IMG/VR virus record: IMGVR_UViG_2541047692_000008
Coordinates: 1 to 54,354 of that record
Reading direction: 5' to 3' (one strand)
DNA length: 54,354 nucleotides
Origin: a virus
Lineage: Duplodnaviria; Heunggongvirae; Uroviricota; Caudoviricetes
Shown: positions 46,828 through 52,280 of the stretch, piece after piece
How positions within the stretch are numbered: the stretch's first letter is position 1
How the letters are laid out: the number at the start of each line of letters is the position of its first letter
Program-made: the position numbers and the translations under genes
The notes under the pieces: generated by a model
The model's database searches: none
Told to the model about the DNA's origin: nothing
Seen by the model: the letters and a program-made list of their open reading frames with translations, nothing else

Positions 46828-49800
46828 ATGAGTAGCGGCGGCGGCAAAGCCAAAACACCAACATTATTGAACGATAACCTGTATCACAAACAGTTTTATC
46901 GTGTTTTAGATATTCTCAGCGAAGGGCCGATATACGGTCCGGTAAACCAGAAAGCGCCATTGAATGACGTGATGCTTAATGACACTCCTGTTACTGACGC
47001 AAACGGGAATACATCAATTCCGGGGATTAGTATAGCCTGGCGCAACGGCACGGCTGACCAATCGCCGATTAATGGTTTTAACGCCATTGAGTCAACCGTT
47101 ATTGTCAACGCAAAGGTAACTCACGACACACCAATAATCAGGACTGTTTCAGATCCAAACGTTACCCGCGTCAGGTTGAATCTTGGTGTTGATGCTCTCG
47201 TTCAGTCAGATGAAAAGGGCAATCAATATAATACATCCGTCATGTTGATGGTTGATGTTAAACCGTCATCATCTTCTACGTGGTCGCTGATTAAAGACAT
47301 ACACATTGGCCCTGGTAAACAAAGCGGTGAATACCTGGAAGCTCACATCATTAAAGCGCCGGATGAAAAACCGTTTGATATTCGCGTTCGTCGCATAACA
47401 CCAGACAGCAACGGCGATCTATTGCGGAATGATACGCGGTGGAGTAGTTACAGCGAAATAATAGATGATAATCTGTCTTATCCTCATACCGCTGTAGCTG
47501 GCGCCGTAATTGACCATGATCAGTATACTGATACGCCTACCCGCACCTATCACCTTCGCGGCCTGATTGTTGATGTGCCTGACAACTACAACCCTGAAAC
47601 GCGCACATATTCAGGTTTATGGCTTGGTGGATTTAAAAAGGCGTATACCAATAACCCTGCATGGCTTTTCCGGTATCTGGTTAAAAACGAGCGCTTTGGA
47701 CTTGCTCGACATGCTGGTTACATTGATGTTGATGATGGCGCTTTGTACGTGCTTTCTCAATACTGCGATCAGTTGGTTGATGATGGCTATGGTGGCCTTG
47801 AACCTCGCATGACGCTTAACGCTTACATTACGGAGCAAATGAGCGCCCGCGACCTACTGGATAACATCGCAGGTATGTTCCGTGGTATCGCGTTATGGGA
47901 CGGACAACGTCTTACCGTGATGATTGATGCGCCACAAGATCCAATCGCCACCATCACAAATGCAAACGTCGTTGATGGCGCGTTTACTCGTTCAAGTATC
48001 GCACGCGCAGAATGCTACAACGCCGTGATCGTATCCTGGACTGACCCTGAAAACGGCTGGGAGCAATCAAAAGAATATGTCGCAGATGATAAACTAATCG
48101 CCCGTGATGGTTATAACGAAACCACGTTGGAGGCGTTCGGTTGCACTTCACGCGGGCAAGCGCACCGCGCTGGTAAATGGCTGATCGAAACAGCGAAACG
48201 CGAGCCGTCAAAATTCACATTTAAAATGGCCCGTGACGCCATTCACTTTACGCCGGGGGATATAATCGAGATCCTCGATAATAATCGCGCAGGCGCTCGT
48301 TTAGGCGGTCGCATCGTGGCGAACAATGGCAGAGCGATCACGGTCGACAAGGTTGATTCTGAATATATCGCGGCTGGCGACACCATCAGCTTACTTGATA
48401 GCGATGGTAAATTTAAAAAACACCAGATCATCGGAGTTAACGGGAACATTATCACCCTTGCAGCCGCCCCGGCGTGGATTCGTAACGGCACTGTTTTTGC
48501 TGTATCAACCAACGCAGCAAAACCCGTTTTATGTCGAATCACCAGTGTAGCAGAAACAGAAAATAACAGCGTATACACCATCGAGGCCGCACAGCATGAT
48601 CCACATAAGCAGGCCGTAGTCGATAATGGCGCAATCTTCGAGATCAATAACGACACGCTTAATCACTTCCGCGTGCCGAACATTGAAAATCTGAAGGTGT
48701 TAAACGTTGGATCTGAAACGGTTCAATGTCGCGCAACATGGGAAACACAGACGACAACGCGTCGCCTGACCTTTGAGATTCGCGTGTATAACGCCGAAGG
48801 CGCTGTAGTTAAAAGCTACGAAACCACGAATTACAGTTATGATTTTTATGGCATTGATGCTGGCAACTACTCATTAGGCATTCGTGGCAGAAATGACACG
48901 GGCATGAAGGGTGCGGAAAGCATTGTCGATCTGGTTATTGGCGCACCAGCGGCCCCAGTTGGCGTTAATTGGGTTCCCGGTGTATTCCAGGCTACAGTTT
49001 ACCCGATCAGCAGAACAACGCTCACCACTGATACCAGTTACGAGTTTTATTACTCAGGTGAAACGCAGATCACTGATCCGGCATCAATAACCACTAAAGC
49101 ACAATATACCGGGCGTGGTCATCAGTGGACGTTTGGCGGCATGAATACAGGTCACACATATTACGTTTATGTGCGCGCGCGTAACGCTTTTGGTGTGTCT
49201 GACTTTGTGGAAGCGTCAGGTAAGCCAACAGAAAACTTTGATGAAATTACCGATTACGTCACCAAAGACGTAATGAATTCCAAACAATTTAAAGAAATGG
49301 TTGGTGACATTAAAGATCTAGGCGACCGCACTGATCTTATCGAAAGCGCTACGAATGACCTTAAAACTGCTACTGACAACCTCAAAACTGCAACTGATAA
49401 TCTGACCAACATAACTGACGATTTAAGGACTGAAACTGACAACCTAACCATAGAAACAGGATCAATAAAAGCTGATACTGATACGCTCAAAAAAGAAACG
49501 GAAGATCTTTATAAAAAAGTTAAGGAAAACGCCGATGATATTGGACAGCATGAGTCGAGAATCGACTCGCTGGAGGTGTCTAGCGAAAAAGTTGGCAGCG
49601 AACTGGCGCAAGCAAAAGCAAGTCTGCAAAACGCCTCACTTGCTCTTATTAATAACTCGCTTGCACAGACTAACACTCGCGTAACTCTTACCGCTCAGTA
49701 CAAGAAAGGCAGGACAGAGACGAAAGCGGAAATTGACCGCATTGACAACGTTATCGCTGAAGAGAAAAAAGCGACAGCGGAATCACTGGAAACCATCACG

Positions 49801-51798
49801 GCAGAAATGAATGTGATGGACACAAACCTTAAAGGTCAGATCTCTAATGTGCAACGCGCAGTAGCTGACGAGGCCAGCGCCCGCGCTGAAGCTATTAACG
49901 GTGTAAATGCCTCAATAAGCAATCTTGACAAGAAAACTGACGCCAGCGTAAACCGTCTTGATCAGGCAATTGCAGACGAAACAAGTGCGCGTACTCAGGC
50001 TATCAGCGACGTGAACGCAAGTATCTCAACACTTGACAAGAAAACTGACGCCAGCGTTAAGCGCCTCGATAATGCAATATCAGATGAAACGCAGGCAAGA
50101 AGCGACGCAATAACAGTGGTTAAAGCTGATTTAACAACGCTTGAAAATAACACAAATGCCAGTGTTAGCCGTCTTGATCAAGCTATCGCTGATGAATCAA
50201 GCGCACGTGCTCAGGCGATATCAGGTATCAGCGCGACGCTTGGCGGCGTTAAAAGTGAGGTTGATAAAAACAGCGACGAGATAGATCAGGCGAAAGCAAG
50301 TCTGCAAAACGCATCTCTGGCGCTTATTAATAACTCAATGGCGCAAAGCAAGATGAGCACTGTTATTGAGGCGAAATACAGGAAAGGACAAACAAAAACA
50401 AAAGCGGAAATAGCAAGGGTAGACACAGCAATCGCAGATGAGGCGAGCGCACGCGCAGAAGCTATTAGCAACGTTAACGCCAGCGTCAGTAGTCTTGAAA
50501 GCAAAACCGACGCGAGCGTTTCCCGTCTTGATAAAGCAATCGCAGATGAGGCGAGCGCACGCGCAGAAGCTATTAGCGGGGTTAATGCGTCAATTTCCAC
50601 GCTCGATAGCAAGGTGACAAGCAACGTAACCAGGATGGATAAAGCGATCGCAGATGAGAAGAATGCACGCACTGACGCAATCAGCAGCCTTAACTCATCG
50701 CTTACCAGTACGATTAATTCGAAAGTATCCGAAGTGTCAACTGCACTTTCTACGCATGAAACATCAAGCGCGGAAAAATTTGGCCAGATCTCGGCATCTT
50801 TCGACGATGTAAACTCAAGCATCACGGAATGGTCACAGGCTATGGCAACGGCAGACGAGGCATTGTCAACCAGAATCGACCAGTTGAAAGTAACTATTAA
50901 CGGAAACACAACGGCGATAGAAACGACATCAAAAGCACTGACTGACTTCAAAGGTAACGTTGATGCGTCATATTCAATTAAGATTGCCACTGATAAAAAC
51001 GGTATGAAATACGCTACAGGAATGTCGCTCGGCCTTACTGGTAGCGGGACTAACGTTCAATCGCAGTGTATTTTCCTCGTTGACCGTTTCGTGCTTATGA
51101 CTGCGGCAGGTGGCTCCTATCAGACCCCGTTCTATGTTACTAACGGTGCTTGCTACATCCGTGATGCGTGGATCAGAGACGCATCAATCACTACCGCGAA
51201 GATTGCGCAGCAAATTCAGTCAACCAACTATAAAGCTGGTTCGGCTGGCTGGATGCTAAATAAAAACGGCAATGCGGAGTTCAACAACGTCACTGTACGC
51301 GGTACGGTGTACGCAACATCTGGTAAATTCACTGGTGAGATTCAGGCCACAAGCGGGAAGTTTAAAGGTACAGTAGAGGCAAAGTCATTTGTCGGTGACG
51401 TTGCTAACATGGGGGTTGGTCCAGATCGAGTGCTTGGGCATAACGGAAGTTATAGCGCAACCATCACATATAAAGACAGCACGGATAATGCATTGACGAA
51501 ATCAGTTATGCTTATGGCGACTATTTCATTAATGTCTGGTGAATATAGATCCACTTATAACGTAACGTTTAGTTGCGGAGATAAAAACAAAACAATTTCA
51601 TATTACGTGCCTTATGGTGGATGCACATTAACAGTGCAATGCGCTTTTTCTGGTTTAAAAGCATCAGATATTATCGGGAAAATATATTGTCCTCAAACAT
51701 CATCATCTGAAGGATACGCATATTGTACCGCGTTGTATTCTCCAACAATGATAGTAGCAAGAGGCACCGGATCATTTAGAACATCAACGACAGCATAA
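46828..51798 (+). CDS. Tail tip host-specificity protein J (lambda gpJ-like) with inserted coiled-coil repeat region
   Basis: 1656 aa; N-terminal 900 aa closely parallel lambda J as recalled (ISEGPIYGPV, WSSYSEIIDD, YHLRGLIVDVPDNYNPETRTYSG, FGCTSRGQAHRAG); residues about 930-1300 are 40-aa tandem repeats. Confidence 0.9.
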   Translation: MSSGGGKAKTPTLLNDNLYHKQFYRVLDILSEGPIYGPVNQKAPLNDVMLNDTPVTDANGNTSIPGISIAWRNGTADQSPINGFNAIESTVIVNAKVTHDTPIIRTVSDPNVTRVRLNLGVDALVQSDEKGNQYNTSVMLMVDVKPSSSSTWSLIKDIHIGPGKQSGEYLEAHIIKAPDEKPFDIRVRRITPDSNGDLLRNDTRWSSYSEIIDDNLSYPHTAVAGAVIDHDQYTDTPTRTYHLRGLIVDVPDNYNPETRTYSGLWLGGFKKAYTNNPAWLFRYLVKNERFGLARHAGYIDVDDGALYVLSQYCDQLVDDGYGGLEPRMTLNAYITEQMSARDLLDNIAGMFRGIALWDGQRLTVMIDAPQDPIATITNANVVDGAFTRSSIARAECYNAVIVSWTDPENGWEQSKEYVADDKLIARDGYNETTLEAFGCTSRGQAHRAGKWLIETAKREPSKFTFKMARDAIHFTPGDIIEILDNNRAGARLGGRIVANNGRAITVDKVDSEYIAAGDTISLLDSDGKFKKHQIIGVNGNIITLAAAPAWIRNGTVFAVSTNAAKPVLCRITSVAETENNSVYTIEAAQHDPHKQAVVDNGAIFEINNDTLNHFRVPNIENLKVLNVGSETVQCRATWETQTTTRRLTFEIRVYNAEGAVVKSYETTNYSYDFYGIDAGNYSLGIRGRNDTGMKGAESIVDLVIGAPAAPVGVNWVPGVFQATVYPISRTTLTTDTSYEFYYSGETQITDPASITTKAQYTGRGHQWTFGGMNTGHTYYVYVRARNAFGVSDFVEASGKPTENFDEITDYVTKDVMNSKQFKEMVGDIKDLGDRTDLIESATNDLKTATDNLKTATDNLTNITDDLRTETDNLTIETGSIKADTDTLKKETEDLYKKVKENADDIGQHESRIDSLEVSSEKVGSELAQAKASLQNASLALINNSLAQTNTRVTLTAQYKKGRTETKAEIDRIDNVIAEEKKATAESLETITAEMNVMDTNLKGQISNVQRAVADEASARAEAINGVNASISNLDKKTDASVNRLDQAIADETSARTQAISDVNASISTLDKKTDASVKRLDNAISDETQARSDAITVVKADLTTLENNTNASVSRLDQAIADESSARAQAISGISATLGGVKSEVDKNSDEIDQAKASLQNASLALINNSMAQSKMSTVIEAKYRKGQTKTKAEIARVDTAIADEASARAEAISNVNASVSSLESKTDASVSRLDKAIADEASARAEAISGVNASISTLDSKVTSNVTRMDKAIADEKNARTDAISSLNSSLTSTINSKVSEVSTALSTHETSSAEKFGQISASFDDVNSSITEWSQAMATADEALSTRIDQLKVTINGNTTAIETTSKALTDFKGNVDASYSIKIATDKNGMKYATGMSLGLTGSGTNVQSQCIFLVDRFVLMTAAGGSYQTPFYVTNGACYIRDAWIRDASITTAKIAQQIQSTNYKAGSAGWMLNKNGNAEFNNVTVRGTVYATSGKFTGEIQATSGKFKGTVEAKSFVGDVANMGVGPDRVLGHNGSYSATITYKDSTDNALTKSVMLMATISLMSGEYRSTYNVTFSCGDKNKTISYYVPYGGCTLTVQCAFSGLKASDIIGKIYCPQTSSSEGYAYCTALYSPTMIVARGTGSFRTSTTA
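49600..50730. repeat. Intragenic tandem and duplicated repeats within J
   Basis: gcgaaagcaagtctgcaaaacgc at 49606 and 50290 (681 bp apart); about 120-bp periodic units encoding TDASV.RLD.AIADE.SAR..AI..VNAS. Confidence 0.75.
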
Positions 51799-51800
51799 AA

Positions 51801-51826
51801 AACGGGGCATAAGCCCCGTTTTTTTT
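51801..51826. terminator. Terminator after J
   Basis: aacggggc-ataa-gccccgtt followed by T8. Confidence 0.65.
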
Positions 51827-51837
51827 ATGCATTGTTT

Positions 51838-52083
51838 TTATTTTTTACACCCATCATTTACACCAGAAAAATGGATAGGTAAATTACATTCACTGTCAAT
51901 AATTTTACCTTGTAGTTGTTTTTCTTTCCATGAGTCAGTATTGAAATAACTCGAACGTTGGTTATCAAGGCCAGTATCACCATATTGAGCAGTGCCAGCA
52001 TCACTCTTATCTGTCGAATTTACAGAAGCAAAAGCACCAAAAGACAGAGCTGATAAGATGCAAGCAACAATTAGTTTTTTCAT
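51838..52083 (-). CDS. Small secreted protein with signal peptide (81 aa)
   Basis: Track ORF 51838..52140; ATG 52083 after aaggtga RBS; MKKLIVACILSALSFGAFASVNS signal peptide; two Cys in mature part. Confidence 0.55.
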   Translation of the reverse strand: MKKLIVACILSALSFGAFASVNSTDKSDAGTAQYGDTGLDNQRSSYFNTDSWKEKQLQGKIIDSECNLPIHFSGVNDGCKK

Positions 52084-52219
52084 TGTATTCACCTTACTGT
52101 TTGTTTTACTGTCATTTGTTGTTCGTGATGATCCACCCATCCGATGAGCAAATCACCGCAGAAGCTATCATTTCGTATGTTGATATAGATCAAAAAATAC
52201 ATTATGTATAAACCAAAAG

Positions 52220-52235
52220 TGTAACACAGATCACA
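52220..52235. promoter_or_regulatory. TGTAA-N6-TCACA palindrome with GATC upstream of tail fibre gene
   Basis: tgtaacacagatcaca followed by caaaatgg motif. Confidence 0.35.
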
Positions 52236-52280
52236 AAATGGTAGAATTGTTTAGTTAATTAACAAAACGGAGTTATTGCG

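Follow-up and report, generated by a model that had tools for sequence, protein, structure and literature searches.

The central tail fibre gene J in the window, i.e., the whole 54,354-nt stretch that was analysed, encodes a protein whose repetitive middle part is probably the expanded alpha-helical shaft of the trimeric central tail fibre, grown by in-register multiplication of repeats. This reading is carried by the anatomy of the repeats, their predicted helicity, their position relative to the J protein of phage lambda, a series of alleles, and the independence of stalk length from the receptor-binding class. [quoted passage not shown]

The gene J (tip attachment / central tail fibre protein, 1656 aa; 46828..51798, plus strand) was identified from the ORF list, its translation, Pfam, phrog_31 (“central tail fiber J”), and the lambda match, and its reading frame is open through all 1656 codons. 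It stands last in the order L-K-I-J of the tail module, with the ORFs of L, K (NlpC/P60), and I located upstream, and the same order is annotated in relatives. The Pfam search detected the domains FNIII-A_GpJ, Phage-tail_3, Ig_J, Ig_J_second, and Phage_Tail_Tip, with E-values of 1e-15 to 1e-34 for the N-terminal hub and FNIII domains. Lambda gpJ (8iyk_J) matched the protein at E=8e-187; its length, given as about 1130 residues when the DNA was first inspected, is 1132 aa in the PDB chain. Residues 1–851 of J aligned with lambda gpJ 1–858 (E=6e-181) and residues 1355–1528 with lambda 837–1000. The alignment at both ends thus places the excess of approximately 525 residues within the helical neck of lambda, which bears out the expansion of about 500 residues that the sequence-only reading had proposed inside J. 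The NCBIfam model NF049904 (lambda_TipJ) gave J a score of 724.7 bits, below its cut-off of 1950; therefore, J was regarded as a homologue with lambda J architecture and without equivalog status.

The conserved hub and FNIII part (aa 1–815; 46828..49272, plus strand), delimited by Pfam and the lambda alignment, is collinear with lambda gpJ 1–~822, and this N-terminal anchor stops at residue 814–815 in 40 of the 40 relatives. At the distal side, the Phage_Tail_Tip domain (PF09327, E=2.9e-40; aa 1363–1500, 50914..51327, plus strand) corresponds to the beta-prism of the lambda central straight fibre, as indicated by the match to lambda 837–1000 and by AF2, which shows beta strands there. The last 156 residues (aa 1501–1656; 51328..51795, plus strand), for which the Pfam search gave no match, form the variable C-terminal receptor-binding region that defines the receptor-binding class. 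Nine tail classes were distinguished at this terminus among the 40 relatives, and receptor contact is assigned to it in the text of PMC11893012. An antisense ORF at 50286–50990 had no family match and was dropped as a gene, and the promoter and terminator scan of 49000–52400 yielded fewer sites than shuffled sequences did.

The whole alpha-helical stalk (aa 816–1362, 547 aa; 49273..50913, plus strand) was equated with the expanded lambda shaft on the basis of its composition, the AF2 prediction, and its flanks, which align on either side to lambda residues 808–860. Lambda residues 809–861 form an alpha-helical shaft, a trimeric three-helix bundle under FNIII-2 (Ge and Wang, 2024, PMC11101478; PDB 8iyk, 8xcj). 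The proximal part of the stalk contains a heptad run (49345..49533, plus strand) of approximately nine TDNLKTA-like 7-residue units with the 3.5 period of a canonical coiled coil. Tandem Repeats Finder (TRF) detected a 21-nt repeat at 49348–49397, inside this run, and the heptad number differs among relatives through 7-residue indels in register, including a 63-nt deletion (3 heptads) in L037, which also carries a deletion of 354 nt. The run shows autocorrelation at lags 7, 14, and 21, with a peak below or equal to the shuffle maximum.

The heptads are followed by two super-repeat blocks on the plus strand, each consisting of a header and tandem 36-residue (108-nt) units. The header of block A (aa 927–1000; 49606..49827; AQAKASLQNASLALINNS...YKKGRTETKAEI...) was recognized by its match to the header of block B and precedes four tandem units (aa 1001–1144; 49828..50259), which were delimited by direct repeats and an HMM. 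The header of block B (aa 1153–1190; 50284..50397; lag-226 autocorrelation of 0.52) precedes three tandem units (aa 1191–1298; 50398..50721), which were defined by the HMM, the alleles, and AF2 and constitute a polymorphic array. The stalk ends in a distal segment (aa 1299–1362; 50722..50913, plus strand), a non-repetitive helix leading into the beta-prism according to AF2 and the profile alignment with pyocin and T1. The interval 49600–50730, to which the expansion had originally been assigned, frames the super-repeat blocks (49606–50721) well and omits the heptads and the distal helix. The two headers share 51% amino acid identity, and a 59-nt repeat within them (49609–49667 versus 50287–50345) is 83% identical. 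The spaced duplication noticed earlier is real, and its offset is 678 nt (49606 versus 50284), i.e., 226 aa, rather than 681 nt.

Families of direct DNA repeats are spaced 108 nt apart. The unit had been described as 40 aa long; it is in fact 36 aa, and the consensus string given with that description itself has 36 characters. Autocorrelation of residues 927–1300 produced peaks at lags 226 (0.52), 190, 36 (0.38), 154, 118, and 72, compared with a maximum of 0.196 in 300 shuffles. Seven 36-aa units were found in J, each with an HMM E-value between 1e-15 and 1e-18; since the HMM was made from those same units, the autocorrelation serves as the independent check on them. In 88 distinct units, the core comprises about ten positions (T1, V5, L8, I12, E15/T16, R19, I23, V26, I30, and L33), of which E15 is conserved in 92% and R19 in 82%. 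The unit follows a 7-7-11-11-type pattern with a period of 3.60, in which polar core layers of Glu and Arg are conserved.

At the DNA level, the 36-mer units share just 44–69% identity, and this low identity left TRF blind to the 108-nt array: in the segment 46000–54354, the program reported the 21-nt heptad repeat only. Outside block B, third-position identity at conserved residues is 0.20–0.50, and exact runs do not exceed 14 nt. Most of the units are thus old and synonymously diverged, which argues against high instability of the array as a whole, with the exception of one unit pair. This pair consists of adjacent block-B units that share an identical 43-nt core (50427..50469 and 50535..50577, plus strand), which occurs exactly twice in the window.

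The stalk contains no proline and 76 alanines in 548 aa. Its dominant hydrophobic period, compared with shuffles, was 3.58 for the whole stalk; the values of 3.5 for the heptads and exactly 3.60 for the 36-mers were at or above the shuffle maxima. AF2 run with a 47-sequence MSA predicted a single helix over aa 1190–1352 (construct residues 2–164), with pLDDT of 90–98 across the three block-B 36-mers. Single-sequence AF2 of aa 801–1656 also gave helices over aa ~802–1372, at low confidence; the mean pLDDT of 48.8 made this model unfit for a fold search. In the same low-confidence model, the helix breaks at both YKKG motifs, which may point to a kinked or folded-back stalk instead of one 80-nm rod. 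The available text of PMC11893012, which gives the length of mEpimmI tails as ~130 nm and makes no mention of very long tip fibres, also weighs against a rod.

When the insert alone was searched against Pfam, sub-threshold coiled-coil look-alikes only were retrieved (Exonuc_VII_L, Baculo_PEP_C, SF-assemblin, and others), with no globular family among them; weak matches of the stalk were to SMC coiled-coil arms only, and T1 gp33 was the sole match of the insert in a phmmer search of the PDB. Homology to solved coiled coils is confined to the two ends of the stalk, and the 36-mers themselves lack it. Within the reach of sequence tools, the coiled-coil nature proposed by the sequence-only reading is supported, namely by the absence of proline, the periods of 3.5 and 3.60, the AF2 helix, the position of the lambda shaft, and homology to the F2 pyocin. 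From homology and periodicity, we infer that the stalk would pack as a parallel trimeric coiled coil with knobs-into-holes contacts.

The protein is the same as the J protein of the mEpimmI group, which in the text of PMC11893012 comprises mEp021, mEp010, mEp013, mEp044, mEp515, mEp554, and 38 prophages. The repeat region 49200–51000 is 100% identical to that of the Escherichia coli M1/5 prophage (CP053296), which appears in a table of that paper; the whole J gene differs from that of M1/5 by 2 substitutions, and nucleotide identity to the mEp phages is 84–90%. This 2025 paper mentions “repeats of different length” in J proteins. In its searchable text, the word “coiled” occurs 0 times, and the coiled-coil nature, the 36-residue unit, the heptad run, the in-register allelic series, and the relation of mEp515 to mEp021 by loss of 1002 nt are not described.

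Comparison of closely related genes revealed a series of copy-number alleles. Block B contains three units in the window and in M1/5, four in GN04592 and L026 (0–2 substitutions), five in LP-26-E1-261 (1 substitution), and two in L027 and L028 (1–3 substitutions). The junction units in the gain and loss alleles are reciprocal chimeras, with the junctions inside the 43-nt core. Furthermore, the J protein of mEp515 is that of mEp021 with 0 substitutions and one in-register deletion of 1002 nt (334 aa), which corresponds to stalks of 407 and 741 aa, respectively; as each of these phages is plaque-forming, both stalk lengths work. Every indel seen was in frame and in register. The 2–5-unit alleles and the mEp021/mEp515 pair provide strong sequence-level support for the proposal that the repeats are recombinogenic and could vary the length of the tail tip. 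Copy number was not fixed among the relatives compared, and Pfam and AF2 revealed no globular domain in the repeat region.

Short-read assemblies can collapse or expand repeat arrays, so the repeats and the copy differences might be assembly errors, or the region might not be translated within J. We find this hardly credible. The units are 108 nt long, and the identical core of just 43 nt is below the typical read length. The alleles recur in independent genomes and viral contigs: that of the window was found in 6 complete genomes, which represent 5 distinct assemblies, as well as in 7 viral contigs, and the 4-unit and 2-unit alleles were found in 2 sources each. The 1656-codon frame is also uninterrupted, and mass spectrometry of mEp021 virions revealed their J protein, as stated in the text of PMC11893012.

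Across 40 J proteins, 34 of them distinct, stalks measure 336–827 aa and occur in 16 distinct lengths. In an 18-protein set, the number of 36-mers ranges from 3 to 14, and its correlation with stalk length is r=0.987; a word-indexed protein search, whose output consisted mainly of J fragments and lacked full-length proteins, was of little use for copy counts. Several stalk lengths were present in every receptor-binding class having at least three members among the 40 proteins. Thus, repeat number sets the length of the stalk rather than the choice of receptor, and stalk length behaves as a module of its own, separate from the receptor-binding domain. According to the receptors given in the text of PMC11893012, LamB users have 4–12 units, and of the two OmpA users, one has 4 and the other 12. 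The earlier suggestion that the repeats could vary host range finds no support when host range means receptor choice, and repeat number as the determinant of receptor specificity was dropped on the basis of these unit counts and of the stalk lengths within classes.

The same survey bears on near-neutral length drift, in which the stalk would be merely a helical connector and copy number would wander by recombination without any length-dependent function. The lack of a link between the 16 lengths and the receptor-binding class would fit such drift, as would mEp515 and mEp021, both of which use OmpA on the same laboratory host according to the text of PMC11893012. However, the shortest stalk still has 336 aa, and none of the relatives surveyed has a lambda-like shaft of ~50 aa. 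The in-frame and in-register character of all indels also speaks against drift, and the units are conserved as protein while their synonymous sites have diverged, which points to purifying selection on each unit. Drift appears rather unlikely to us.

The expanded-shaft reading was further compared with known systems. Lambda gpJ and J belong to one family and share the domain order of hub, FNIII-1/2, helical shaft, beta-prism, and receptor-binding domain. However, the lambda shaft is ~50 residues long and non-repetitive, whereas the J stalk of 547 aa (336–827 aa in relatives) consists of 7-, 36-, and 226-residue repeats that are polymorphic in copy number. The J-like T1 gp33 (PDB 9l9p_S), which matches the distal stalk and tip of J at a profile E-value of 6e-91, likewise carries helical repeat modules (“IADETQAR...”) directly upstream of Phage_Tail_Tip, but it has another repeat unit in far fewer copies and a total length of 1172 aa. 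Its repeat region is unresolved in the map and is represented by an AF3 prediction only, as an alpha/beta fibre of ~37 nm (PMC11945409).

The distal stalk and tip of J also match the F-type pyocin (PA0641 type) fibre F2 (25vf_A; profile E=6e-80), with residues ~998–1085 of the F2-pyocin CFP aligned to the distal stalk. The F2-pyocin shaft has been resolved by cryo-EM as a trimeric coiled coil (bioRxiv 10.64898/2026.02.24.707460). In contrast to J, the pyocin shaft keeps a mainly continuous heptad register, broken by a single stutter, and is not described as a tandem-repeat array; it is 2–5 times shorter than the J stalks and does not align with the 36-mers. Entries 9YG8–9YGD of the PDB, which belong to the F7 pyocin paper, were absent from the structure matches of J; entry 9ZE4 is cited in a paper on Pseudomonas phage DEV, and 25VF in a paper that compares the F-type pyocin with the tail of phage lambda.

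The pyocin homology raises the tentative possibility that the stalk is, in addition, a fold-switching energy store, which would add to the shaft reading rather than exclude it. A metastable coiled coil would refold to a beta-prism on receptor binding, as the F7 pyocin fibre does, with Phage_Tail_Tip seeding the prism. [quoted passage not shown] Each 36-mer would provide about one beta-hairpin per chain; thus, copy number would set the size of the prism and the stored energy. He et al. [quoted passage not shown] The switch is demonstrated in the pyocin and merely suggested for J, in which the motif and Glu-Arg i/i+4 pairs are also present in the 36-mers: each unit has a reverse match (ASVSRLDKAIA, positions 3–13), a forward match (ARAEAISGVNA, 18–28), and the E15-R19 pair. 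In both orientations, the motif occurs 29 times in the stalk versus 7.5 +/- 2.6 in shuffles, with 0 of 2000 reaching 29, counts that are inflated by the non-independence of the repeat copies; its matches cluster in the 36-mers, and the heptad run has none. The homology of the distal stalk and tip with the pyocin fibre also speaks for a switch, and Phage_Tail_Tip, homologous to the pyocin and lambda prisms, begins at aa 1363, directly C-terminal to the coiled coil, at the position of a non-switching beta-prism seed.

However, the motif is loose and may be matched by Ala-rich amphipathic helices. AF2 with the MSA returned the helical state only, in a monomer run that is no fair test of the switch. 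Lambda and T5 lack an equally extensive switch, according to He et al. (PMC12874032), and one of 340–830 residues would be 2–5 times any observed. The tolerated difference of 334 aa between mEp021 and mEp515 also argues against a finely tuned energy need. The more specific proposal that the 36-mer is a modular fold-switch element, a coiled coil in the virion and a beta-hairpin prism layer after LamB/OmpA binding, is unlikely in our opinion. If it were true, the shaft of 340–830 residues would exceed every protein fold switch known so far, the number of repeats would govern how far a non-contractile tail moves and with what energy, and the dose-response would be directly testable with mEp021/mEp515 and the 2–5-unit alleles.

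Another proposed role of the shaft, perhaps through its header or YKKG segments, is that of a docking platform for the N-terminal ends of the fibre protein encoded downstream, in the way that the shaft of the F-pyocin binds its side fibres. A fibre gene (52281–54077) lies a short distance downstream of J, and the header, a non-36-mer segment, is itself duplicated in some relatives. However, both stalk length and the number of header copies (0–2, counted by a strict pattern that misses some variant spellings) vary among relatives with the same downstream fibre type. The side fibres of lambda attach elsewhere on J, which is a further argument against docking, and we consider this role very unlikely.

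According to the preferred reading of an expanded shaft, growth would have occurred by in-register multiplication at three nested levels, i.e., heptads, 36-mers, and the 226-residue super-repeat of header and 36-mers. Unequal homologous recombination between units, or slippage between them during replication, would change copy number; the present hot spot would be the 43-nt identical core of the two adjacent block-B units, and rarer events would fuse diverged units in register. Such a shaft would keep the beta-prism and the receptor-binding domain distant from the tail tip, with a predicted reach, if fully extended, of ~80 nm for J and ~50–120 nm across relatives, or ~5 nm per 36-mer. Receptor binding would then lead to rearrangement of the shaft, as in lambda. 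The adaptive meaning may be to tune how far the receptor-binding tip extends through surface polysaccharide towards LamB-/OmpA-type receptors.

Variable coiled-coil repeats are expected in phage fibres, and J is otherwise ordinary as a finding of a genome scan. How non-contractile tails sense a distant receptor and then perform the work of opening and penetration is still being worked out, and the shaft of the central fibre, which rearranges in lambda and switches its fold in the F7 pyocin, has been newly implicated there. The phage group represents a natural series of shaft lengths from 336 to 827 residues, in which some alleles are otherwise identical and some length variants are already plaque-forming phages with known receptors. 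It would therefore be a convenient system for relating shaft length to receptor access through O-antigen or capsule, to adsorption kinetics, and to ejection. In addition, the 36-mer may serve as a ready-made 5-nm “ruler” module for engineered phage or tailocin fibres.

The tail-tip gene J (46828-51798, plus strand) lies 3' of homologues of L, K (NlpC/P60), and I and encodes a protein of 1656 aa, which PHROGs labels central tail fibre J. The Pfam domains FNIII-A_GpJ (aa 88-214), Phage-tail_3 (aa 335-492), Ig_J (aa 609-707), Ig_J_second (aa 709-811), and Phage_Tail_Tip (aa 1363-1500) were identified in it. In the alignment to the solved structure of lambda gpJ (8iyk_J, 1132 aa), aa 1-851 corresponded to gpJ residues 1-858 and aa 1355-1528 to residues 837-1000; therefore, the ~525 extra residues form a single insert within the short alpha-helical shaft of lambda. 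In lambda, gpJ residues 809-861 form a three-helix bundle with FNIII-2 on one side and the beta-prism on the other (Ge & Wang, PMC11101478).

Direct-repeat families in the DNA of J are spaced by 108 nt, and the units line up when the protein is printed in a register of 36 residues. Residue autocorrelation over aa 927-1300 peaked at lags 226 (0.52), 190, 36 (0.38), 154, 118, and 72, against a shuffle maximum of 0.196, and showed no peak at lag 40. The consensus string proposed in the sequence-only reading was correct, but its length of 40 aa was not, as the string itself counts 36 characters. Of the seven good 36-aa units, block A (aa 1001-1144) holds four and block B (aa 1191-1298) holds three. 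A header (AKASLQNASLALINNS...YKKG.T.TKAEI) stands 5' of each block, and header and units together make up a 226-aa super-repeat. The spaced duplication that had been reported is present, although the 59-nt DNA repeat pair lies 678 nt apart and not 681. Upstream of the blocks, a heptad run (aa ~840-902) is built of 7-aa units encoded by a 21-nt tandem repeat. The 108-nt array was not detected by TRF because DNA identity among the units is merely 44-69%. An antisense ORF of 234 aa (50286-50990, minus strand) lies wholly within the repeat region; it had no PHROG match and probably reflects the periodic alanine-rich codons rather than a gene.

The whole stalk (aa 816-1362; 49273-50913) lacks proline, is poor in aromatic residues, and has 76 alanines. 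Along the heptad run its hydrophobic period was 3.5, and each of the two 36-mer blocks had a period of exactly 3.60; an N-terminal control of equal length had neither. Across 88 distinct 36-aa units from relatives, the conserved hydrophobic positions were 5, 8, 12, 23, 26, 30, and 33; E15 (92%) and R19 (82%) were conserved in the gap between hydrophobic positions, with T1 at the seam. The approximately ten core positions per 36 residues follow a pattern similar to 7-7-11-11, with polar layers in the core. Single-sequence AF2 predicted, at low confidence, a helix over aa ~802-1372 that is interrupted at both YKKG motifs. With a 47-sequence alignment, aa 1190-1352 were modeled as a single continuous helix followed by the beta-rich tip domain, with pLDDT of 90-98 across all three block-B units. 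The family search returned no globular match to the insert, its sole matches being SMC coiled-coil arms below the threshold. The profile of the distal stalk and tip matched T1 gp33 (E=6e-91), the J-like gp24 (23gd), and the F2-pyocin central fibre (25vf_A, E=6e-80). The last alignment ran through pyocin residues ~998-1085, which form a trimeric coiled coil by cryo-EM (10.64898/2026.02.24.707460). The lack of proline, the two periods, the AF2 helix, and the distal homology to the pyocin coiled coil thus support the coiled coil proposed from the sequence alone, and we infer that the 36-mers are packed as a trimer.

In the F7-pyocin J homologue, receptor binding turns a coiled coil into a beta-prism (He et al., PMC12874032). 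A full fold switch of this kind, in which the stalk would refold to beta-prism, is compatible with a shaft, and we consider it rather unlikely here. The strand motif SxSxxMxxLxS with Glu/Asp-Arg pairs (He et al., PMC12874032) matched the stalk 29 times, compared with 7.5 +/- 2.6 in shuffles. These matches were limited to the 36-mers, each carrying a reverse and then a forward match, with none in the heptads, and the E15-R19 pair agrees with the Glu/Asp-Arg description. However, the motif is loose, the repeat copies are non-independent, monomer AF2 gave helix alone, and viable phages tolerate a 334-aa difference in the stalk.

The helical shaft varies in length among closely related genes. The repeat region of the window is 100% identical to those of prophages of E. 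coli M1/5 and MS 21-1, and J genes of 4971, 5079, and 5187 nt occur in prophages sharing identical L, K, and I proteins. Relative to the window J, viral contigs L027 and L028 (two block-B units) lack one 108-nt unit and differ by 3 and 1 substitutions; M1/5, with three units like the window, differs by 2 substitutions. One 108-nt unit is added in GN04592 (2 substitutions) and viral contig L026 (0 substitutions), both with four units, and two are added in LP-26-E1-261 (five units, 1 substitution). The gained unit is a chimera of the front of unit 2 and the back of unit 1, and the unit remaining in the loss alleles is the reciprocal chimera. The crossover fell within a 43-nt exact repeat (50427-50469 = 50535-50577); no other long stretch is identical in any two units. 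The array has one hot spot active at present. Outside block B, the third-position identity of unit pairs, taken at conserved residues, was no more than 0.20-0.50, which indicates an old array that has been preserved as protein. In addition, J of phage mEp515 equals that of mEp021 with zero substitutions, minus 1002 nt (334 aa) removed in a single in-register deletion whose junction has an identity of just 5 nt. J of viral contig L037 has deletions of 63 nt (three heptads) and 354 nt, and the heptad run differs among relatives by whole heptads. The range of 2-5 block-B units in near-identical J genes, the chimeric junctions, and the 16 stalk lengths bear out, at the sequence level, the suggestion that the repeats are recombinogenic and vary in length; the proposed comparison across related prophages likewise found variable copy number (18 J proteins).

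In 40 J proteins, drawn from phages, prophages, and viral contigs, stalks were 336-827 aa long and came in 16 distinct lengths. The number of 36-mers (3 to 14 in the 18-protein set) correlated with stalk length at r=0.987, and repeat number sets stalk length. Nine C-terminal (receptor-binding) classes were distinguished among relatives, and several stalk lengths occurred in every class with at least three members, those of the window's class being 408, 418, 511, 547, 583, and 619 aa. As shown in PMC11893012, LamB is required by mEp010, mEp013, mEp044, and mEp554 (9, 4, 12, and 12 units in our count), and OmpA by mEp021 and mEp515 (12 and 4 units). Unit counts vary within both groups; therefore, the receptor is not chosen by repeat number, which speaks against the idea that the repeats vary host range by way of receptor choice. 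For a stalk that forms a straight coiled coil, at 0.148 nm per residue, the calculated reach of the tip would be ~81 nm for the window J and 50-122 nm in relatives, with 5.3 nm per 36-mer.

Directly downstream of J, a small ORF on the opposite strand (51838-52140, minus strand) encodes an N-terminal signal peptide (MKKLIVACILSALSFGAFA...) and gave a weak PHROG match alone, to phrog_2243 (unknown function). In mEpimmI phages, this slot is occupied by superinfection-exclusion lipoproteins (PMC11893012), and UMNK88 has Cor in it. A fibre protein (52281-54077, plus strand; 598 aa) has a GTA/head-spike-fibre domain and a match to phrog_1419, 'tail protein'; relatives have pyocin-knob/S74 peptidase proteins of ~840-1100 aa or 'tail fiber domain' proteins of ~1140-1160 aa in its place. 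The differing fibres therefore point to a second host-recognition module swapped independently of J. Between I and J, mEp021 has an HNH endonuclease gene (L003 2437-3003), and mEp515 has the same 567-nt ORF annotated as hypothetical (L002 2437-3003); it is absent in the window and the other relatives compared. The window has 54,354 nt vs. 53-55 kb in related phage genomes, and in the tail region it is almost the same as the M1/5 prophage adjoining ydaN/zntB. The window is probably a whole prophage.

Four 36-aa units were searched exhaustively against 1.84 billion cluster representatives; just 85 proteins matched at E<=1e-3, and 35 matched at E<=1e-10. Outside mEpimmI-type J proteins, the strict 36-mer is essentially absent. 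Helical modules of a looser 'AIADE..AR' type are present in further J-like proteins (one of 1922 aa) and in very large fibrous proteins, and T1 gp33 has its own version, unresolved in the T1 map. In the 1922-aa protein (P0065), whose modules are loosely related, FNIII-A spans aa 92-219 and the tip domain spans aa 1769-1903, so that its stalk is possibly near 1000 residues, in another lineage. PF28217.1 is annotated just upstream of PF09327 on three 36-mer-bearing fragments (P0001, P0002, and P0004) and may already model the repeat region.

The prophage belongs to the mEpimmI group; M1/5, GN04592, MS21-1, and UMNK88 all appear in tables of PMC11893012. That paper already noted 'repeats of different length' in these J proteins, and its searched text makes no mention of coiled coils. 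In pyocins, J homologues with long coiled-coil shafts are already known. Given this membership and these shafts, the J stalk is a real, well-behaved case of a known type. This analysis adds the 36-residue, 3.6-period unit, the heptad run, the series of reciprocal alleles at the 43-nt core, the equality of mEp515 J with mEp021 J less 1002 nt, the observation that stalk length does not depend on receptor-binding class, and the fold-switch motif match. We propose that the stalk would be a modular trimeric helical shaft of adjustable length, which would hold the beta-prism and receptor-binding domain at a distance from the tail tip and would evolve via in-register unequal recombination or slippage. 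Phages mEp515 and mEp021, both OmpA-dependent and from the Mexican collection, are a ready-made isogenic pair for stalk-length tests. The most plausible benefit of such a shaft would be access of the tip, across O-antigen or capsule, to porin-type receptors.
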